Shown here: positions 1 through 20,611 of the stretch, piece after piece | Position numbering within the stretch: the stretch's first letter is position 1 | Layout: every line of letters begins with the position of its first letter | Source: Promethearchaeota archaeon | GTDB lineage: Archaea > Asgardarchaeota > Lokiarchaeia > Sigyniarchaeales > SOKP01 | Reading direction: 5' to 3' | Length of the DNA stretch: 64,000 bases | Assembly: GCA_019057865.1 (NCBI GenBank) | Contig: JAHLWP010000016.1 | Coordinates: 1-64,000 of the forward strand | Program-made: the position numbers and the translations under genes | The notes under the pieces: generated by a model | Database searches by the model: none | Told to the model about the DNA's origin: nothing | The model's input: only the letters and a program-made list of their open reading frames with translations

Positions 1-204
1 ATGGTTGGTGGAAAGTTAGACCTCCATAAAGAAAGAGTAATATCCAGAAAATACGCTAAGAAAATCTCAAAAAAATATAAAATCGTTAAATACTTCGAAT
101 GTTCCTCTAAAACTGGACAAAATGTTGAAAAAATCTTTGAATTTTTAGCGAGATCCATACAGAAACATGAAGATTATTTTAATAAAACTAAACAAAATAT
201 TTAA
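1..204 (+). CDS. Rab-like small GTPase, C-terminal part (probably truncated by the window edge)
   Basis: G4-like GGKLDL and G5 ECSSKTGQNVEKIF motifs; G1-G3 lie outside the window. Confidence 0.85.
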   Translation: MVGGKLDLHKERVISRKYAKKISKKYKIVKYFECSSKTGQNVEKIFEFLARSIQKHEDYFNKTKQNI

Positions 205-218
205 AGGAAAAAAAAATT

Positions 219-255
219 ATTTTTCAGGTTTTATGTTCATTTCATCCCAATTAAT
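219..255. repeat. att-like direct repeat copy 1 (orphan 3' end of the wHTH gene, LINWDEMNIKPEK*)
   Basis: 33/37 identical to 4784-4820, with a 14-bp perfect core TTCATTTCATCCCA. Confidence 0.7.
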
Positions 256-316
256 TAATATCGGACACTTTTTGGATAGGTTCTATTAGAATAAATAAAT
301 CGTTTAATTAAATGAT

Positions 317-1546
317 TTATTTTTTTATTTTATTTTTAGCTAATAATTCCTCAATAGTAATAGGAATAATAATAAATTTATCATCGTTTTTAGTACGAGC
401 AATCTCTTCCATAGCACCTTTAGTAATCTTAAAACCGACCACAAAACCTGCTTTTTTCTTAGTCCTTCTTAACACGGTCTCAAACTTATCTATATCAGGT
501 CTTGAAATGCTATGTTGCTTAACTTCTATTGGTAAATTTGACCCGTATTCACTTATAGGAACTATACCATCTATTCCCATATCAGCAGTTTTTTTCTGAG
601 ATACTTTCCCGCCAATTCTTTCAATAACCCAATTTTGAAACTCGAAATGTGGTAATTCTTTTAACTCTTCAATAGAATATTTCATTCCAACAATATCATC
701 TTTTTTGTAATGAATTCTTTTAGACATCAACCGACATGCCGTAGGAGATACATCTATACCTATAAATTTTCTATTCAAATCCTTAGCTACTTTAACAGTA
801 GTTCCGCACCCACAAAAAGCGTCAAGAACTATATCATCTTCATTTGACGATGCTTTTATAATCCGTTCTAATAATTTTTCTGGCTTTTGTGTAGGATAAC
901 CCAATCTTTCTCTTGCTTCCCGATTTATAGTTTCAATATCAGTCCAATAATCTTCTGGTATTTTTCCTTTATCCATATAATAACGATATACTTTGCCCGT
1001 TTTTTTATCTGTTTTTTCTTGGTATTCTCTACCATCTGCATCCGTTCTTACTTTCATGTGAGTTTTTGGTCTTGGTATTACAACTGCATCGCCATTAAAA
1101 GTCCATTTCTTTCCTTTGGTATAGAAAAATATTATGTCATGCTTTCTTGCAAATCTTTTTTTACTTTTCCCACCAATTGTATAGCACCAAATTATTTCAT
1201 TTTGAAATTTTTTTTGACCAAATATGTCATCACATATTATTTTTAAGTAATGAGAAGCGTGATAATCACAATGAAGATAAAAAGTTCCCGTTTTTTTTAA
1301 TATTCTATGTAATTGTTCAATTCTAGGTCTCATCCATCCCAAATAATGTTGTATTCCGCCTTCCCATCGATCTTCAAAAGCTCTTAATTCGTATCCATCG
1401 TTCCATATTACTTCATAGGTTCTATTAGAAAAGAATGGTGGGTCTATGTAAATTAAATCCACACATTCATCTGGGAAGTCTTTTAAAACATCTAAATTAT
1501 CGCCGCAATATATAGTATCTATTTTAAATTGATATTTTACTTCCAT
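317..1546 (-). CDS. N4/N6 DNA methyltransferase fused to C-terminal Mrr-like restriction endonuclease domain
   Basis: DLIYIDPPF, YPTQKPEKLLERII and DAFCGCGTT motifs; C-terminal FEFQNW...ADMGIDG...IEVKQ PD-(D/E)xK-type motif. Confidence 0.9.
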   Translation of the reverse strand: MEVKYQFKIDTIYCGDNLDVLKDFPDECVDLIYIDPPFFSNRTYEVIWNDGYELRAFEDRWEGGIQHYLGWMRPRIEQLHRILKKTGTFYLHCDYHASHYLKIICDDIFGQKKFQNEIIWCYTIGGKSKKRFARKHDIIFFYTKGKKWTFNGDAVVIPRPKTHMKVRTDADGREYQEKTDKKTGKVYRYYMDKGKIPEDYWTDIETINREARERLGYPTQKPEKLLERIIKASSNEDDIVLDAFCGCGTTVKVAKDLNRKFIGIDVSPTACRLMSKRIHYKKDDIVGMKYSIEELKELPHFEFQNWVIERIGGKVSQKKTADMGIDGIVPISEYGSNLPIEVKQHSISRPDIDKFETVLRRTKKKAGFVVGFKITKGAMEEIARTKNDDKFIIIPITIEELLAKNKIKK

Positions 1547-1613
1547 AATTTATCAAAAATTTATTAAGTTAATAAGTTTTATATAAATAAACATTTATTC
1601 AAATAGATTTATC

Positions 1614-2381
1614 TCAAAAAATTTCTCTTGTATCTTGGATCTGAACGATTTGCTTTTCTTGGATATAATGTTTTAAAGTTTGTTCTTGAATCCCTAGCAT
1701 TTCGGCAGTCTGTTTTGAACTATAACCGTTTTTATATAATTCTGTAGCATATTTATATCTTACAGCGTGAGTATTGAACCCACAGAATTTCCTAAAATTA
1801 CGAGTAAGTGTTTTATCATCAATCTTTTCTCCCGTATGTTTATTAGTGAATAAGTAAGGGAAATGTTCTTTAGGGAATTTTTTAAAGATTCGTTTTAATG
1901 CTTCCAATAATTTAGGAGATTTAATAGCTTTAGCATTATCTTGTTTATATTTTCCATAATTGTATCTAACATAACTAGTATCAATGGTATCTAAGTGAAA
2001 GCTTTCTTTCTTTAAATCGGTATAAAGAGTTCGGCGATCACATATTTCAAAAGGTAAGGCAATCTCTATAAACAATAATAGCTCATCTTCATTATCTAAA
2101 CTTAGTTTCTGAAGTTTCTTTTTTATGTTTCTAATTTGTAAATCGGTTGGAAGAGGTGGTCTTTTCTTCTTATGAGGGCGTTTGATTGTTGGAAAAAGAT
2201 CGTATAAATCCTTAGTAAACATATTTGGATGCATAGCTTTACAGAAAGTTCGGCAAAATACTCTGTGGGTATTAACTGTTAAATCTGCTAAATGGTCTTT
2301 AATATGCCCATATTCAACTATTTCATCTTCGGTTAAATCTTTAAACTCAGTTCTGAGAATTCTCATAACTTTTAAAACCAA
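1614..2381 (-). CDS. Tyrosine recombinase/integrase (compact)
   Basis: YLF box, HAVR (HxxR), MLG and TLKHY catalytic Tyr; the usual LGH His is Ile. Confidence 0.75.
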   Translation of the reverse strand: MVLKVMRILRTEFKDLTEDEIVEYGHIKDHLADLTVNTHRVFCRTFCKAMHPNMFTKDLYDLFPTIKRPHKKKRPPLPTDLQIRNIKKKLQKLSLDNEDELLLFIEIALPFEICDRRTLYTDLKKESFHLDTIDTSYVRYNYGKYKQDNAKAIKSPKLLEALKRIFKKFPKEHFPYLFTNKHTGEKIDDKTLTRNFRKFCGFNTHAVRYKYATELYKNGYSSKQTAEMLGIQEQTLKHYIQEKQIVQIQDTREIF

Positions 2382-2476
2382 TTCCTACAAACCGATTTGA
2401 ACCCCCACTCTCAGAAACCTCACAGAATAGGTATAGAGGGGAAAGTAAGATTCTAATAATAATATTATTCCATCTC

Positions 2477-2517
2477 AGAATGATGTTTCTGCCTTTCTAT
2501 TCCCATTCTGTGAAAGA
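2477..2517. repeat. Dyad site B; 2493-2517 is a perfect 25-bp inverted repeat of 3370-3394
   Basis: CTTTCTATTCCCATTCTGTGAAAGA versus TCTTTCACAGAATGGGAATAGAAAG; 33-bp AGAATG...CATTCT dyad. Confidence 0.85.
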
Positions 2518-2954
2518 TAAAATACGATTTTTTTTATAAATTTTTTTACTCTCCAGGAAAAATTTTGATAATAATTTTAGATTTTAGCCTTTTTTTTTTA
2601 GATAATTTTATAAAACATAAGTAGAGTGCTTGTAGACCTATTTAAAAGTAATGGTCTATTCCACTACTTTTTATATTATGTTCTCTCGCCTTCTAAAACA
2701 CCTTTCTTTTAGTTTGTTTTTTTTTTATTTTTTGTTTATACTCAAGCAGGAAGCAAACTGAGTTTGACTTGATGAAGGGAGGCTAACTTCTTATTCTATA
2801 CAGTTTGGCAGATTCCATTCAAATTTTATCAATATTGTATTAAAGTATAGGAATTATATTATAACTTTAATAATATATTTTTTATTTAGTTATGATATGT
2901 TTTTAGAACCGATTTTTTGAAAGTAATATTAAATTATTATAAAAAAAGAAAAAA

Positions 2955-3407
2955 TTAGTTAATTAATTCTAAATTTTCAATTATTATTGGTGAATCCTCA
3001 ATTTGAGTACGGGAATTAACAGGGGATAAAATATTATGATAATCAAAATTATTTTTATCCTGGAAAATAAATTTTAATTCTTTTACTACAACATTATTAA
3101 ATTGAACTTTAAATTGATTTCTTTCAGGTCTGTGTTCATCTGGTTTGATTCTCTCAATAGTTTCTATATTGACTATAGATCCATTTTGTTTAAGCTCTTT
3201 TAATTGTCTTTTAAGAAAATTTATTTCATATTTTAGGAATTGCAACTCTTGGTCCACATTCCTATCATTTTTTTGTAATTGAATGATATTCCAACAAGTC
3301 TTTCCATATTTTCTTTCAATAGATTCTTTAGAAGTCAAAATCCTTCCACAACGAAGACATTTAATTAATTCTTTCACAGAATGGGAATAGAAAGCCCAAG
3401 ATACCAT
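2955..3407 (-). CDS. Zn-finger (DUF6011-like) coiled-coil protein
   Basis: CLRCGRILTSKESIERKYGKTC motif followed by a heptad-rich segment. Confidence 0.7.
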   Translation of the reverse strand: MVSWAFYSHSVKELIKCLRCGRILTSKESIERKYGKTCWNIIQLQKNDRNVDQELQFLKYEINFLKRQLKELKQNGSIVNIETIERIKPDEHRPERNQFKVQFNNVVVKELKFIFQDKNNFDYHNILSPVNSRTQIEDSPIIIENLELIN

Positions 3408-3410
3408 TAC
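3370..3410. repeat. Dyad site C inside the 5' end of the Zn-finger gene
   Basis: Inverted partner of site B; 33-bp unit aligns with sites B and D. Confidence 0.85.
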
Positions 3411-3428
3411 ATTGAAGCTACTACGATT

Positions 3429-3900
3429 ACTTCAGGATTTGTAAATCATTGATTTCGTTATTGAATTCATTAGATTTACTGAATCTTAAAATTGAAGATT
3501 ATATTTAATTTAACTATCAAAAAGGGTTAAAAAAAAACTTTATTTCACATTATTTTTTGATTAAATACATCTGCATAATTGCTAAGTCAAACTTTTTAAT
3601 TAGTTTGCTGTTAGCACATAAAAGCACACTAATCCTTCTTGCATAATATAGATAATTCATTTTTAATCCATTTTAATTTTTTTTATTTTCTTATTTTCAA
3701 TATTTTATAGAATGATGATAGAAGGCTTGAAATACCATTCTATTACGATTTTCATTTGAGAATTGTCCATAACTTCAGAATTTAAAATCGTTGATTTTGT
3801 TATTGAACTCATTAGATTTACTGAATCTTAAAATTGAAGATTATATTCAACTAAACCATCAAAAAAGGTTAAAAAAGAAAGATTTTATTTCACATTTATT
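3429..3900. repeat. Two ~125-bp imperfect direct repeats (about 3429-3555 and 3772-3900) plus dyad site D (3709-3741)
   Basis: 39-bp identical core TCATTAGATTTACTGAATCTTAAAATTGAAGATTATATT at 3467-3505 and 3809-3847. Confidence 0.9.
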
Positions 3901-3961
3901 GAAAAAGTTGATAAATATTGTTCAGAAAATAAATAAATCTTCTCTTCTAAATTTTAAGAAA

Positions 3962-4468
3962 TCATTGAAAAATATGAATAGAAGCCTTCTTTTCAAGGTT
4001 TAAATTTATATTTTCATTTTTACAACTTTCTTCGAAGAATTTTAAAAAACTTTTTTTAATAGGAAGGTTTGTAGTCTCTTTTTTATAATCATAAAGTAAA
4101 GCTCCTTCTTTAATACATATTTCATTATAACCATCTGAACACATTAATGAGATCTTAAAAAGTTGATTTTCATATATATAATCGTTTGTTCTCGCATATT
4201 CGTCGTATCTTAGCTGGAATTTAAATTTTAATACTTTTTGAATTTTTTTCAAACCAATTTCTTCAAATAAATTTTCAATATTAATACTCATGTGAAGTTC
4301 AAGCTTTTCTTTCGCAAATAACTTGTATAATTTAATAAAATTTTTTGAATCTTTTCTTTTTTCAAAATACTTCTTTAATTGATCAATTATAACCCAGACT
4401 AATATTGAGCCTATTGTTGCAATAGTGGATCCAATAATCGATCCAATTATATTTTCTTGGAAAATCAT
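3962..4468 (-). CDS. Hypothetical protein with N-terminal transmembrane helix
   Basis: IIGSIIGSTIATIGSILVWVII hydrophobic stretch; 168 aa ORF. Confidence 0.65.
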   Translation of the reverse strand: MIFQENIIGSIIGSTIATIGSILVWVIIDQLKKYFEKRKDSKNFIKLYKLFAKEKLELHMSINIENLFEEIGLKKIQKVLKFKFQLRYDEYARTNDYIYENQLFKISLMCSDGYNEICIKEGALLYDYKKETTNLPIKKSFLKFFEESCKNENINLNLEKKASIHIFQ

Positions 4469-4772
4469 ATTTCTATTTTATTACCTTATTTTATTGAAGA
4501 TTCTATAGAATTTTTTATAATATTATACTAACAAAGTTGTAAAGTATTTATAATTTATGAGTATGAGCTTTTAACCTATATATTTACTGATGTTCCAATA
4601 TATTTTTTTTTTTGGTGATCATTAAGGTCATTCCTATCCAATAACAGTTTAAATTGGTATTTCAAGGATTCTATTGTTGTTTTATAAAAAAATTAAAATT
4701 AGATTTAATTTTTTATCCTGAACCTATGGCCATTAAAATTTTTTATCTCCAGGATAAATCTTTGAAATTATA

Positions 4773-5078
4773 CTATACTATGAATTTTTCAGGGTTTAGA
4801 TTCATTTCATCCCAGTTAATGAATTCCTTATAACTCACAGGGAAATATTGTTTTTTAACTCGTCCATTTTCAATTATAGTAGAATTTCTAATGACTTTAT
4901 CCTTAAGTAATTTCTGGATATAATGATTTACTTTCCCAGAGGTCCAATTAACTTTTTTAGTTAAGTCATAAATTGTTAATCCAGGACTCTTATTAATGAG
5001 TTTATATAAGAAATATTTATTCTTCATAGCATTAAATAATCTGATTTTATTTGCTTTATTTAACATTTCACACACCAT
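4773..5078 (-). CDS. Winged-helix (MarR/ArsR-like) regulator; its 3' end contains att-like repeat copy 2
   Basis: PGLTIYDLTKKVNWTSGKVNHYIQKL HTH followed by a wing. Confidence 0.8.
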   Translation of the reverse strand: MVCEMLNKANKIRLFNAMKNKYFLYKLINKSPGLTIYDLTKKVNWTSGKVNHYIQKLLKDKVIRNSTIIENGRVKKQYFPVSYKEFINWDEMNLNPEKFIV

Positions 5079-5206: not shown

Positions 5207-5476
5207 TTATATATTATTTTTGTATAATTTATAACCTGCTTTTAATCCTTTTTTAGTAAGCTGATAAGTCATTTTTCTTCCGCTAGGATGTTTGAATATA
5301 AACCCATTTGAACGTAATAATTTTATGGCTTTTTTTTTATAACTAGAGGGAAGTATCTTAATTCTTCTTGTAATTGCTTCAATTGGGACACGAGATCTTA
5401 AACTCCCTTTGTTTGCGTCATAACAAGCCAACAAAACAATTTTCTCATCTTCATCTAAGTCTTCTAATTCCTTCAT
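5207..5476 (-). CDS. Small winged-helix protein
   Basis: KAIKLLRSNGFI...YQLTKKG wHTH signature. Confidence 0.7.
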   Translation of the reverse strand: MKELEDLDEDEKIVLLACYDANKGSLRSRVPIEAITRRIKILPSSYKKKAIKLLRSNGFIFKHPSGRKMTYQLTKKGLKAGYKLYKNNI

Positions 5477-9526: not shown

Positions 9527-10027
9527 ATGATTTTTATACCCGATAGTTCTTTCTTTATAGCCATAATATCTGAATTAGAAGAAATAAAATTACTTAAAAG
9601 AATATTGGATATTGAGAATAATCGAATTATATTAACAAATGAAGTCTATAATGAAATCAAAGATACGAAGAATTCAGATCAATTAATGTCATTAATTCAA
9701 AATAAAATTATAATTCTTAAAAAAAAAATTAATAATCGAGATTTTGAAAATTATTGTAGAGAAAATTATACGCTTAATATTGGTGAATTATCTGTTATTT
9801 ATATTGGAAATGAATTAAAAATAACAACTCAAGACTATTATTGTATAATTGATGAGAAAAAAGCGAGAAAATTATCAAAAGAAGAAAATTTAAAATTATG
9901 TGGTACAATAGGGTTTTTAGAATATCTTTTAAATCTGAATCTAATATCTAAAAATGAATTCAAAAATTATTTAAAAATACTAAAACTTAAAGGATTTCGA
10001 TTACCAAAAGCCTATAATAAATTATAA
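9527..10027 (+). CDS. PIN-domain nuclease (DUF3368-like), putative toxin
   Basis: DSSFFI, GELSVI, IIDEKKAR, GTIGFL and GFRL motifs. Confidence 0.85.
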   Translation: MIFIPDSSFFIAIISELEEIKLLKRILDIENNRIILTNEVYNEIKDTKNSDQLMSLIQNKIIILKKKINNRDFENYCRENYTLNIGELSVIYIGNELKITTQDYYCIIDEKKARKLSKEENLKLCGTIGFLEYLLNLNLISKNEFKNYLKILKLKGFRLPKAYNKL

Positions 10028-14073: not shown

Positions 14074-14092
14074 ACGAAAGTGCTTATAAAAA
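14074..14092 (+). promoter_or_regulatory. Candidate BRE/TATA promoter for the repeat array
   Basis: ACGAAAG followed by TTATAAAAA about 75 bp before repeat 1. Confidence 0.45.
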
Positions 14093-14165
14093 GGGATTAG
14101 AACGCTTAGAAATACTAAACTCGTCTCTTTTGGCTCTACCTATTTAAAAATAAGAGAAATTTAGT

Positions 14166-14375
14166 AAAATACCCTTGCAGGTAGAGATTAAATGATCGGT
14201 AAATTATTTTTACCGATCTTTTTATTAAAATACCCTTGCAGGTAGAGATTAAATTTTTGATAGCTGGATAAATTTGGACACCTTCGAAAATACCCTTGCA
14301 GGTAGAGATTAAATATAATAGGTGGGTACATTTTGTACCCTCCTCTTAAAATACCCTTGCAGGTAGAGATTAAAT
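14166..14375 (+). CRISPR. CRISPR-like mini-array: 4 identical 28-bp repeats with 33/32/33-bp unique spacers; no cas genes in window
   Basis: AAAATACCCTTGCAGGTAGAGATTAAAT at 14166, 14227, 14287 and 14348. Confidence 0.7.
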
Positions 14376-14380
14376 ATTTT

Positions 14381-14430
14381 GAAGGCGTTATTTCAGATCA
14401 CGCCTTCCCTACGATGCCTTCTTTTTTTTT
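14381..14430 (+). terminator. Hairpin and T-run closing the array
   Basis: GAAGGCGT-N11-ACGCCTTC, then a T9 run ending at 14430. Confidence 0.45.
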
Positions 14431-20404: not shown

Positions 20405-20611
20405 TCAAGAAAGAACTTCCAATATCTTAGTAAGAATACGAGCTTTACCGCCTGTGGATTGCAGTAAAGTTTTTCCGCATACTAAACATTCAACATCAGT
20501 AGCAGAACATCCAAAAATAATTTGCTGATTTCCACAATTTAAGCACTTCACACGTAAAAATCTAGATTTTGGCTGTGGAATAATTGCCTTTTCTTCTCTT
20601 TTATGAACCAT
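20405..20611 (-). CDS. rps27e: 30S ribosomal protein S27e
   Basis: [13 protein letters not shown]...[16 protein letters not shown]. Confidence 0.97.

Follow-up and report, generated by a model that had tools for sequence, protein, structure and literature searches.

Related systems and the locus under study

Invertons are invertible segments of DNA that are flanked by inverted repeats and situated beside a recombinase gene, examples being fimS with FimB/FimE and the invertible promoters of Bacteroides. In the shufflon of plasmid R64, the tyrosine recombinase Rci is accompanied by multiple sfx sites, and alternative 3' ends are fused to a constant gene. A locus that resembles both of these systems in part is described here, near the left end of the first 64 kb (hereafter the window) of contig C27, which belongs to the genome (G000; 4.26 Mb, 29% G+C, 99.7% complete) of a Promethearchaeota archaeon assembled from a sediment metagenome. 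At this locus, copies of a short motif were found around a zinc-finger gene and next to a tyrosine recombinase gene. Archaeal invertons have barely been studied, with about 12 putative cases having been reported in the literature that was searched, all among Euryarchaeota and Crenarchaeota (bioRxiv 10.1101/2023.03.11.532203). Integrons have also been described in archaea (PMC9668308), as have the self-splitting ('suicidal') integrases of the SSV type (PMC7253208).

An earlier note on this DNA had proposed an inversion switch operated by the neighbouring recombinase. The geometry that it described was right, in that segments the size of a gene are enclosed by related sites of either orientation beside a gene of the tyrosine recombinase fold. 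The working switch itself was not supported, as the recombinase gene was found to be truncated, the repeat that brackets the surrounding insert was found to be a different one and no alternative arrangement was found. The motif copies are instead tentatively read as fossil copies of a leader or junction segment within a decaying, rearranged insert, an explanation which, judged from the sequence, falls a little short of an even prospect.

Identification and arrangement of the motif copies

Five copies of the motif, designated A to E, were identified in the window. Copies A (2414-2461), C (3367-3415) and D (3698-3749) lie on the minus strand, while B (2470-2519) and E (4645-4694) lie on the plus strand. 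A sixth copy was identified on contig C11 (C11:20570-20620), where it borders a related gene module at a distance of 37 nt from the neighbouring gene. The earlier note had listed four related sites, of which B (2477-2509, plus strand), C (3378-3410, minus strand) and D (3709-3741) were present as quoted. Its looser fourth site, A, proved weak, possessing a 2-nt deletion and matching B and C at 16 of 18 nt, and copies E and C11 had been overlooked.

The right half of B (2493-2517) and the corresponding part of C (3370-3394) form the arms of a perfect inverted repeat (25 of 25 nt), with 852 nt between them that hold the body of the zinc-finger gene, as had been claimed. An imperfect extension of this repeat (2479-2517 and 3370-3408) is identical at 33 of 39 nt. 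D and E form a second inverted pair (76% identity over 50-54 nt, E 1e-7) and are separated by 907 nt containing orf168, a gene for a small protein of unknown function. Both B/C and D/E thus possess the inverted repeats by which an invertible segment is recognized. C and D, which are separated by 331 nt, share the same orientation, also in agreement with the earlier description.

Inverted repeats that are perfect over 20 nt or more and have arms no further than 3 kb apart are scarce, numbering only about 6 in the 4.26-Mb genome. The remaining ones that are candidates for invertible segments were located at C22:32831-33332, C25:61094-62977 and C54:6545-7353, with repeats of 54, 28 and 21 nt, respectively, and arms 0.4-1.8 kb apart.

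Similarity by chance was excluded for B, C, D and the C11 copy. Each half of the motif was matched 2 times, where shuffled sequence led to an expectation of 0.00-0.02 matches, local BLAST of the motif copies returned values of E 1e-6 to 1e-7, and a genome-wide search with a leave-one-out profile recovered these four copies at E 1e-5 to 2e-3. The same profile recovered E weakly, the support for this copy coming mainly from its pairwise match to D, and missed A. The genome-wide search found no motif copies beyond these six, and no convincing copy was found among 134 genomes of the family. Weak profile matches in 16 related genomes were judged to be due to chance (three within a single DUF362-like host gene and the remainder AT-rich noise), while pattern matches to the motif in IMG/VR were unrelated.

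All copies possess a TTCTAY core, around which their similarity was found to be a mosaic. B and C are identical from this core through the first 8 nt of the zinc-finger open reading frame (ORF), with identity being only about 60% leftward of it. D and the C11 copy, in turn, are 92% identical over the left half of the motif together with 14 nt of the leader and are far less alike rightward. The copies also differ in extent. Such sharing of halves (right between B and C, left with flank between D and the C11 copy, and the core in common) fits with past exchange at these sites.

The sites had been described as 33-bp dyads. What was found is a terminal inverted repeat of just 6 bp (AGAATG / CATTCT). 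B and D have it intact, in C it is displaced, and E and the C11 copy have lost it, so that it is not conserved across the copies. Hairpins predicted from single copies were not significant (z -1.9 to +0.7), while A and B together constitute a 94-nt palindrome that folds as a stable hairpin (z -3.2 to -3.7). Downstream of the copies, C leads into the zinc-finger gene, whose start it abuts or overlaps on the 5' side, and D is followed by only a 13-codon stub; no gene follows B, E or the C11 copy.

The leader unit and the nature of the motif

C and D were each found to terminate a duplicated unit of about 190 nt that looks like a promoter or leader. The unit upstream of C (3420-3560) and its second copy upstream of D (3751-3905) both lie on the minus strand, with their cores (3426-3551 and 3769-3896) giving a 129-nt alignment of 87% identity (E 5e-38). 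The resemblance to a promoter or leader is suggested by a 21-nt box within the unit (3491-3511 and 3833-3853), which recurs a third time at 4493-4513, 25 nt upstream of orf168. In the C/D pair, the leader (87%) is better kept than the motif (about 70%), whereas the reverse would be expected for a recombination site under selection.

Other identities for the motif were examined and rejected. As a coding sequence it would comprise, on the strand with the ATG, ten codons that are present in no homolog, and the frames of the opposite strand are at most 36 aa. Substitutions between the copies were found to be spread across all codon positions with no third-position bias; together with the position at which the homologs of the zinc-finger protein start (GTG 3377), this indicates that the motif is non-coding and was joined to the gene secondarily. 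An attachment site derived from a tRNA fragment was rejected since the window has no tRNA, and a T-arm-like 17-mer beside A was found to have its sole match elsewhere in a coding region. A structured RNA was likewise rejected, as there was no Rfam match and no significant single-copy hairpin, and the consensus fold of two sequences was weak.

No similarity was found between the motif and the repeat of a mini-CRISPR carried by the same mobile element. This array is cas-less and lies at 14074-14430 of the window. A mini array like it was observed at the end of a related metagenomic element (L014 13502-13651), where a 28-nt repeat occurs three times with a 61-nt period.

The tyrosine recombinase gene is an internal fragment

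The earlier note had placed a tyrosine recombinase beside the sites; this was correct with regard to its fold, but the gene is truncated. The ORF at 1614-2381 (minus strand) shares homology with its orthologs only over 1620-2348, equivalent to residues about 146-387 of 393, and scored below the Pfam integrase cut-off (22.9 against 27.1). The orthologs are 90-95% identical to it and 390-394 aa in length, and all come from short, unbinned metagenome contigs. A zinc-finger N-terminus, a coiled segment and the last six codons have been lost from the window copy, with unrelated sequence in their place, and mapping onto a relative (P0143) showed that about half of the SAM-like core-binding domain is gone. 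The window ORF is therefore neither a whole gene nor in possession of an intact core-binding domain. A perfect 12-nt palindrome centred on an EcoRI site was observed at 2355-2366, at the point (2348) where the integrase homology ends.

The family to which this fragment belongs has few members and stands apart from others (13 representatives among 1.84 billion), and its sequences and predicted structure indicate that it is a genuine tyrosine recombinase family. Relative P0143 (28-33% identical) passes the cut-offs of the Pfam Phage_integrase model (35.7 against 27.1) and of the SAM-like domain. Across 9 family members, the catalytic Arg, His-x-x-Arg and Tyr do not vary (R249/R250, H338-x-x-R341 and Y372 in the numbering of the full-length ortholog P0010). 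The window ORF retains all of the catalytic residues, with the second His being Ile (LGI), as assigned by alignment only. A first AlphaFold model was unusable (predicted local distance difference test, pLDDT, 41.7), and the addition of distant relatives gave one in which the catalytic domain could be used. In this model of P0010, the catalytic domain has a pLDDT of 70-90 and the two-domain fold, core-binding and catalytic, is present. Its top fold matches in the PDB were XerA, Tn1549 Int, XerH, IntI, Cre and lambda Int, all with a probability of 1.00.

In tyrosine recombinases, loss of the core-binding domain on this scale is expected to abolish recombination, and by analogy recombination by the truncated window enzyme should be abolished. 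No trace of the missing N-terminal part was found in the 99.7%-complete genome, and an SSV-type split integrase was rejected on this ground. No intact copy of the family was found in 400 genomes of the phylum, nor was the integrase found in the IMG/VR, phage or plasmid collections. From a practical point of view, the recombinase call at this locus should carry the annotation "fragment".

Relics of the same integrase were identified in a genome of the same genus, as two scattered pieces, these being a match to the zinc-finger N-terminus within another ORF and a C-terminal relic of 56 aa. The breakpoints of the relics vary (residues 146, 326 and 71), and no motif copy lies alongside those of the related genome. 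The C-terminal relic (L078, G033:C65, 6422-6631) lies 3 kb upstream of an ortholog of the Ras-family GTPase gene found at the left edge of the window (94% identity at the nucleotide level). It is enclosed by an inverted repeat of 48 nt and 92% identity (5341-5388 and 9704-9751) that comes from the GTPase 3' end, with 4.3 kb between the arms. The N-terminal piece (L048 1474-2085, G033:C38) combines the zinc-finger domain of the integrase (69% identity, residues 4-71) with an unrelated C-terminal part, and this fusion ORF adjoins a 349-aa protein made up of C2H2 zinc-finger repeats.

The zinc-finger gene and the consequence of a B-C inversion

The zinc-finger (DUF6011-like) gene is situated at 2955-3407 on the minus strand, with a conserved GTG start at 3377 and an ATG at 3407 that would add 10 aa. 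In seven homologs of the zinc-finger protein, the start coincides with GTG 3377, and the ten codons between ATG 3407 and GTG 3377 were found only at the present locus and in no homolog. Copy C, which had been placed within the first codons of this gene, is thus probably just 5' of its real start codon and outside of the conserved codons. Between the stop codon of the gene and B lies a stretch of about 430 nt with no ORF (2523-2954), and an oligo-T run is found immediately past the stop codon on the minus strand.

It had been suggested that inversion between B and C would detach the gene from its start. When this inversion was carried out in silico, the 150-aa ORF was retained on the other strand and was identical from residue 11 onward. 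The 25-nt repeat reaches across the GTG start to include the initial 8 nt of the ORF, while an in-frame ATG is provided by B; an inversion would therefore exchange the upstream region while leaving the gene attached to a start. The C-side leader would then read into a stub of 19 codons.

Comparison with related loci showed neither the motif nor an analogous repeat at other zinc-finger loci. A 20-nt match between the tail of C with the zinc-finger start and the winged helix-turn-helix (wHTH) gene of the C11 module was attributed to the conserved N-terminus of the zinc-finger protein itself. The zinc-finger gene immediately precedes a homolog of orf89 both in the C11 module, where the wHTH gene comes next, and at locus L018, whereas in the window it lies downstream of the wHTH gene and has thus been moved. 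The C11 module has homologs of the zinc-finger, orf89 and wHTH genes in common with the window element. A Gabija-like defence pair was observed downstream of it (L001 11790-15629, C11:25789-29628), consisting of a GajA-type ATPase (E 2e-56) and a GajB-type UvrD helicase (E 3e-74).

The 4.6-kb insert and its mobile element

All five local motif copies lie within a 4.6-kb insert (about 220-4824) at the left end of an integrated mobile element of low G+C content, which extends from ~220 to ~20,300 (roughly 20 kb). The insert is bracketed by a 41-nt direct repeat (219-259 and 4784-4824; 36 of 41 nt identical, E 4e-8) that duplicates the last 11 codons and the stop codon of the wHTH gene (4773-5078, minus strand). 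The right copy lies within the 3' end of this gene, and the left copy begins where homology to a GTPase paralog ends. Direct repeats at both ends of the insert are therefore supplied by this 41-nt sequence, with A to E all being internal to the insert. It is the 41-nt repeat and not the motif that occupies the position expected for attachment sites, and it is the more likely of the two to represent them.

In addition to the motif copies, the insert contains a methylase gene, the recombinase fragment, the zinc-finger gene and orf168. These four genes form a mosaic, as their nearest relatives are found on contigs and in gene neighbourhoods that differ from one gene to the next. The methylase is a DNA methyltransferase with an Mrr-like C-terminal domain (317-1546, minus strand), and its closest relative is 87% identical and located on other contigs. 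The Mrr-like domain has a restriction-endonuclease fold, and the same fusion is frequent among the thousands of homologs of this protein. The gene orf168 (3962-4468, minus strand) lies between D and E, and an 80% identical homolog (at the nucleotide level) in another genus was found in a different context with the motif absent. Atlas and PADLOC searches returned nothing for orf168 or the zinc-finger protein. A reading of the repeats as terminal inverted repeats or as a miniature inverted-repeat transposable element was rejected, as a transposase is absent and no clear target-site duplication was seen.

The mobile element carries genes for a DUF5906 primase-helicase, its own TFB, and ribbon-helix-helix (RHH) and winged-helix proteins. 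Beyond it, the genes of ribosomal proteins S27e and L44e begin at 20,405. Relatives of two proteins of the locus bear Asgard names, which fits an Asgard host, as does the presence of a Ras-family GTPase gene. This gene, at the left edge, shares 91% identity with a paralog on contig C11, an additional paralog being present on C7. Homology to the C11 paralog covers positions 2-220 of the window and ends exactly at 220. The three Ras-like paralogs are 88-91% identical overall, with their final 40 nt being 100% identical (window 181-220, C11:13900-13939 and C7:1460-1499), and in C27 the mobile element begins directly afterwards. The identical 3' ends could be due to gene conversion or to a common insertion target.

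Origin of the motif copies

As the recombinase is itself a broken piece, the region is read as a fossil of past recombination and not as a present-day switch. The sites would be copies or fragments of a single non-coding segment of about 45 nt, the fullest form of which would end a promoter-like or leader unit and enter a start codon, as C does before the zinc-finger gene. Duplication and rearrangement may then have scattered copies in both orientations within the mosaic insert, in which the recombinase gene, truncated at both ends, would be another fragment. The copies themselves, their patchy similarity, the truncation and the mixed origin of the genes are shown by the sequence, from which we infer that rearrangements gave rise to the copies and that nothing flips them today. 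Several observations weigh against this explanation. The perfect 25-nt inverted repeat is of a rare kind (one of about 6 in the genome) and lies only ~110 nt from a gene of the recombinase fold. The identity of B and C in their right halves, with about 60% in their left halves, cannot be explained by a recent plain duplication. Inverted copies enclose segments the size of a gene in two places (852 and 907 nt). Design is argued for most strongly by the effect of an inversion, after which the ORF would still be whole and in-frame ATGs would be available from both flanks, an arrangement that looks designed and not accidental.

One alternative is an active or recently active inversion module (an inverton or a shufflon-like system), in which a full-length integrase acting in trans would flip B-C, and possibly D-E, so as to switch the zinc-finger gene between the leader unit of C and the AT-rich spacer between A and B. 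The rarity of the 25/25 repeat, the preservation of the 150-aa ORF from residue 11 with an in-frame ATG from both flanks, the mosaic of half-sites around the TTCTAY core and the adjacent gene of tyrosine recombinase fold all speak for such a module, as do the intact orthologs (90-95% identical) circulating in sediment metagenomes and the same-genus relic of this integrase inside its 48-nt, 92% inverted repeat with arms 4.3 kb apart. It is nonetheless considered unlikely, given that the local enzyme is without ~145 N-terminal residues, that neither this genome nor any of 400 from the phylum has an intact copy, and that the assembly holds no second arrangement or alternative junction. Moreover, the dyad is weak and not conserved, the inversion partners reveal no alternative ORFs and the repeat flanking the insert is a different sequence. 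A broader proposal, that SWIM-finger tyrosine recombinases on unbinned Asgard elements flip cassettes of small genes between promoter or leader units, with the window enzyme having been recently truncated and made dependent on supply in trans, appears distinctly improbable. The cassettes would in that case be the zinc-finger gene and orf168, with the repeat spanning the start codon so that the frame survives in either orientation. A role in cis, with the motif being an operator for the wHTH, RHH or zinc-finger protein or a 5' RNA element that pairs with its inverted copies, is given the same small chance as the inversion module. It would account for the position of C directly at the zinc-finger start, that of A 40-55 nt upstream of the recombinase ORF and the conserved promoter-like unit that C and D follow, the 21-nt box of which is also found before orf168. 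The stable hairpin of A with B (z -3.2 to -3.7) and the several small DNA-binding proteins and TFB encoded by the element would also be in keeping with it. However, a gene follows only 2 of the 6 copies, and the remainder of the ~20-kb element has no copies, nor do related zinc-finger loci at which these regulators are retained. In the C/D pair, conservation is lower in the motif than in its flanks, an Rfam match and a significant single-copy structure are both lacking, and the oligo-T run past the zinc-finger stop makes read-through to B unlikely. The copies could also be scars of hybrid attachment sites, with related elements having repeatedly entered and left a single site (tandem accretion) before inversions reshuffled what remained. 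The C11 copy directly borders a related gene module, the neighbouring gene being 37 nt away, halves appear to have been exchanged around the common core and the region beside the GTPase gene is an insertion hot spot in two genomes. Accretion yields direct repeats, though, and 3 of the 5 local copies would require additional inversions; with the insert also being flanked by a different 41-nt repeat and the integrase relics of the related genome having no adjacent motif copy, this origin is regarded as very improbable.

Comparison with known systems

The resemblance to an inverton lies in the 25-nt perfect (39-nt imperfect) inverted repeat around 852 bp, situated ~110 nt from a recombinase-fold gene, and in the change that inversion would bring to the sequence upstream of a gene. 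The locus differs from invertons in that its recombinase is an internal fragment, so that no functional cognate enzyme is present nearby, and in that the segment holds a whole gene instead of a promoter. Furthermore, only one arrangement is seen in the assembly, and the repeat was not found in related genomes. If the B-C segment did nevertheless prove to be flipped, it would be a first candidate for a DNA-inversion switch among the mobile elements of Asgard archaea, and the full-length integrase and the B/C repeat would make up a directly testable pair of enzyme and substrate.

With the shufflon, the locus shares several related sites in both orientations between short segments beside a tyrosine recombinase gene. 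Its sites, however, are much more diverged than sfx, and B, D and E are followed by stubs of 9-13 codons or by a frame antisense to the wHTH gene, and not by alternative 3' ends. Integrons and clusters of attC sites lacking an integrase (CALIN) are similar to it in having small, promoter-poor genes between related, imperfectly palindromic sites upstream of a tyrosine recombinase gene. Here, in contrast, site orientation is mixed, there is no attC architecture and no significant hairpin at the individual sites, and the genes point toward the recombinase. Nor is the enzyme of the IntI kind, as it scored 20-22 bits against the NCBIfam XerA/integron-integrase model, for which the cut-off is 220.

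With an SSV-type integrase, the N-terminal part would be expected to remain at the opposite end of the element, whereas no such part is present and the breakpoints of the relics vary. Parallels are provided by tandem accretion and by decayed integrases, with which the locus shares a mosaic insert, a truncated integrase, a direct repeat of 41 nt in which the 3' end of a target gene is duplicated and relics of the same integrase in a related genome. Should the explanation as a fossil be true, the locus would represent an ordinary, though unusually legible, case of the patchwork of Asgard mobile elements.

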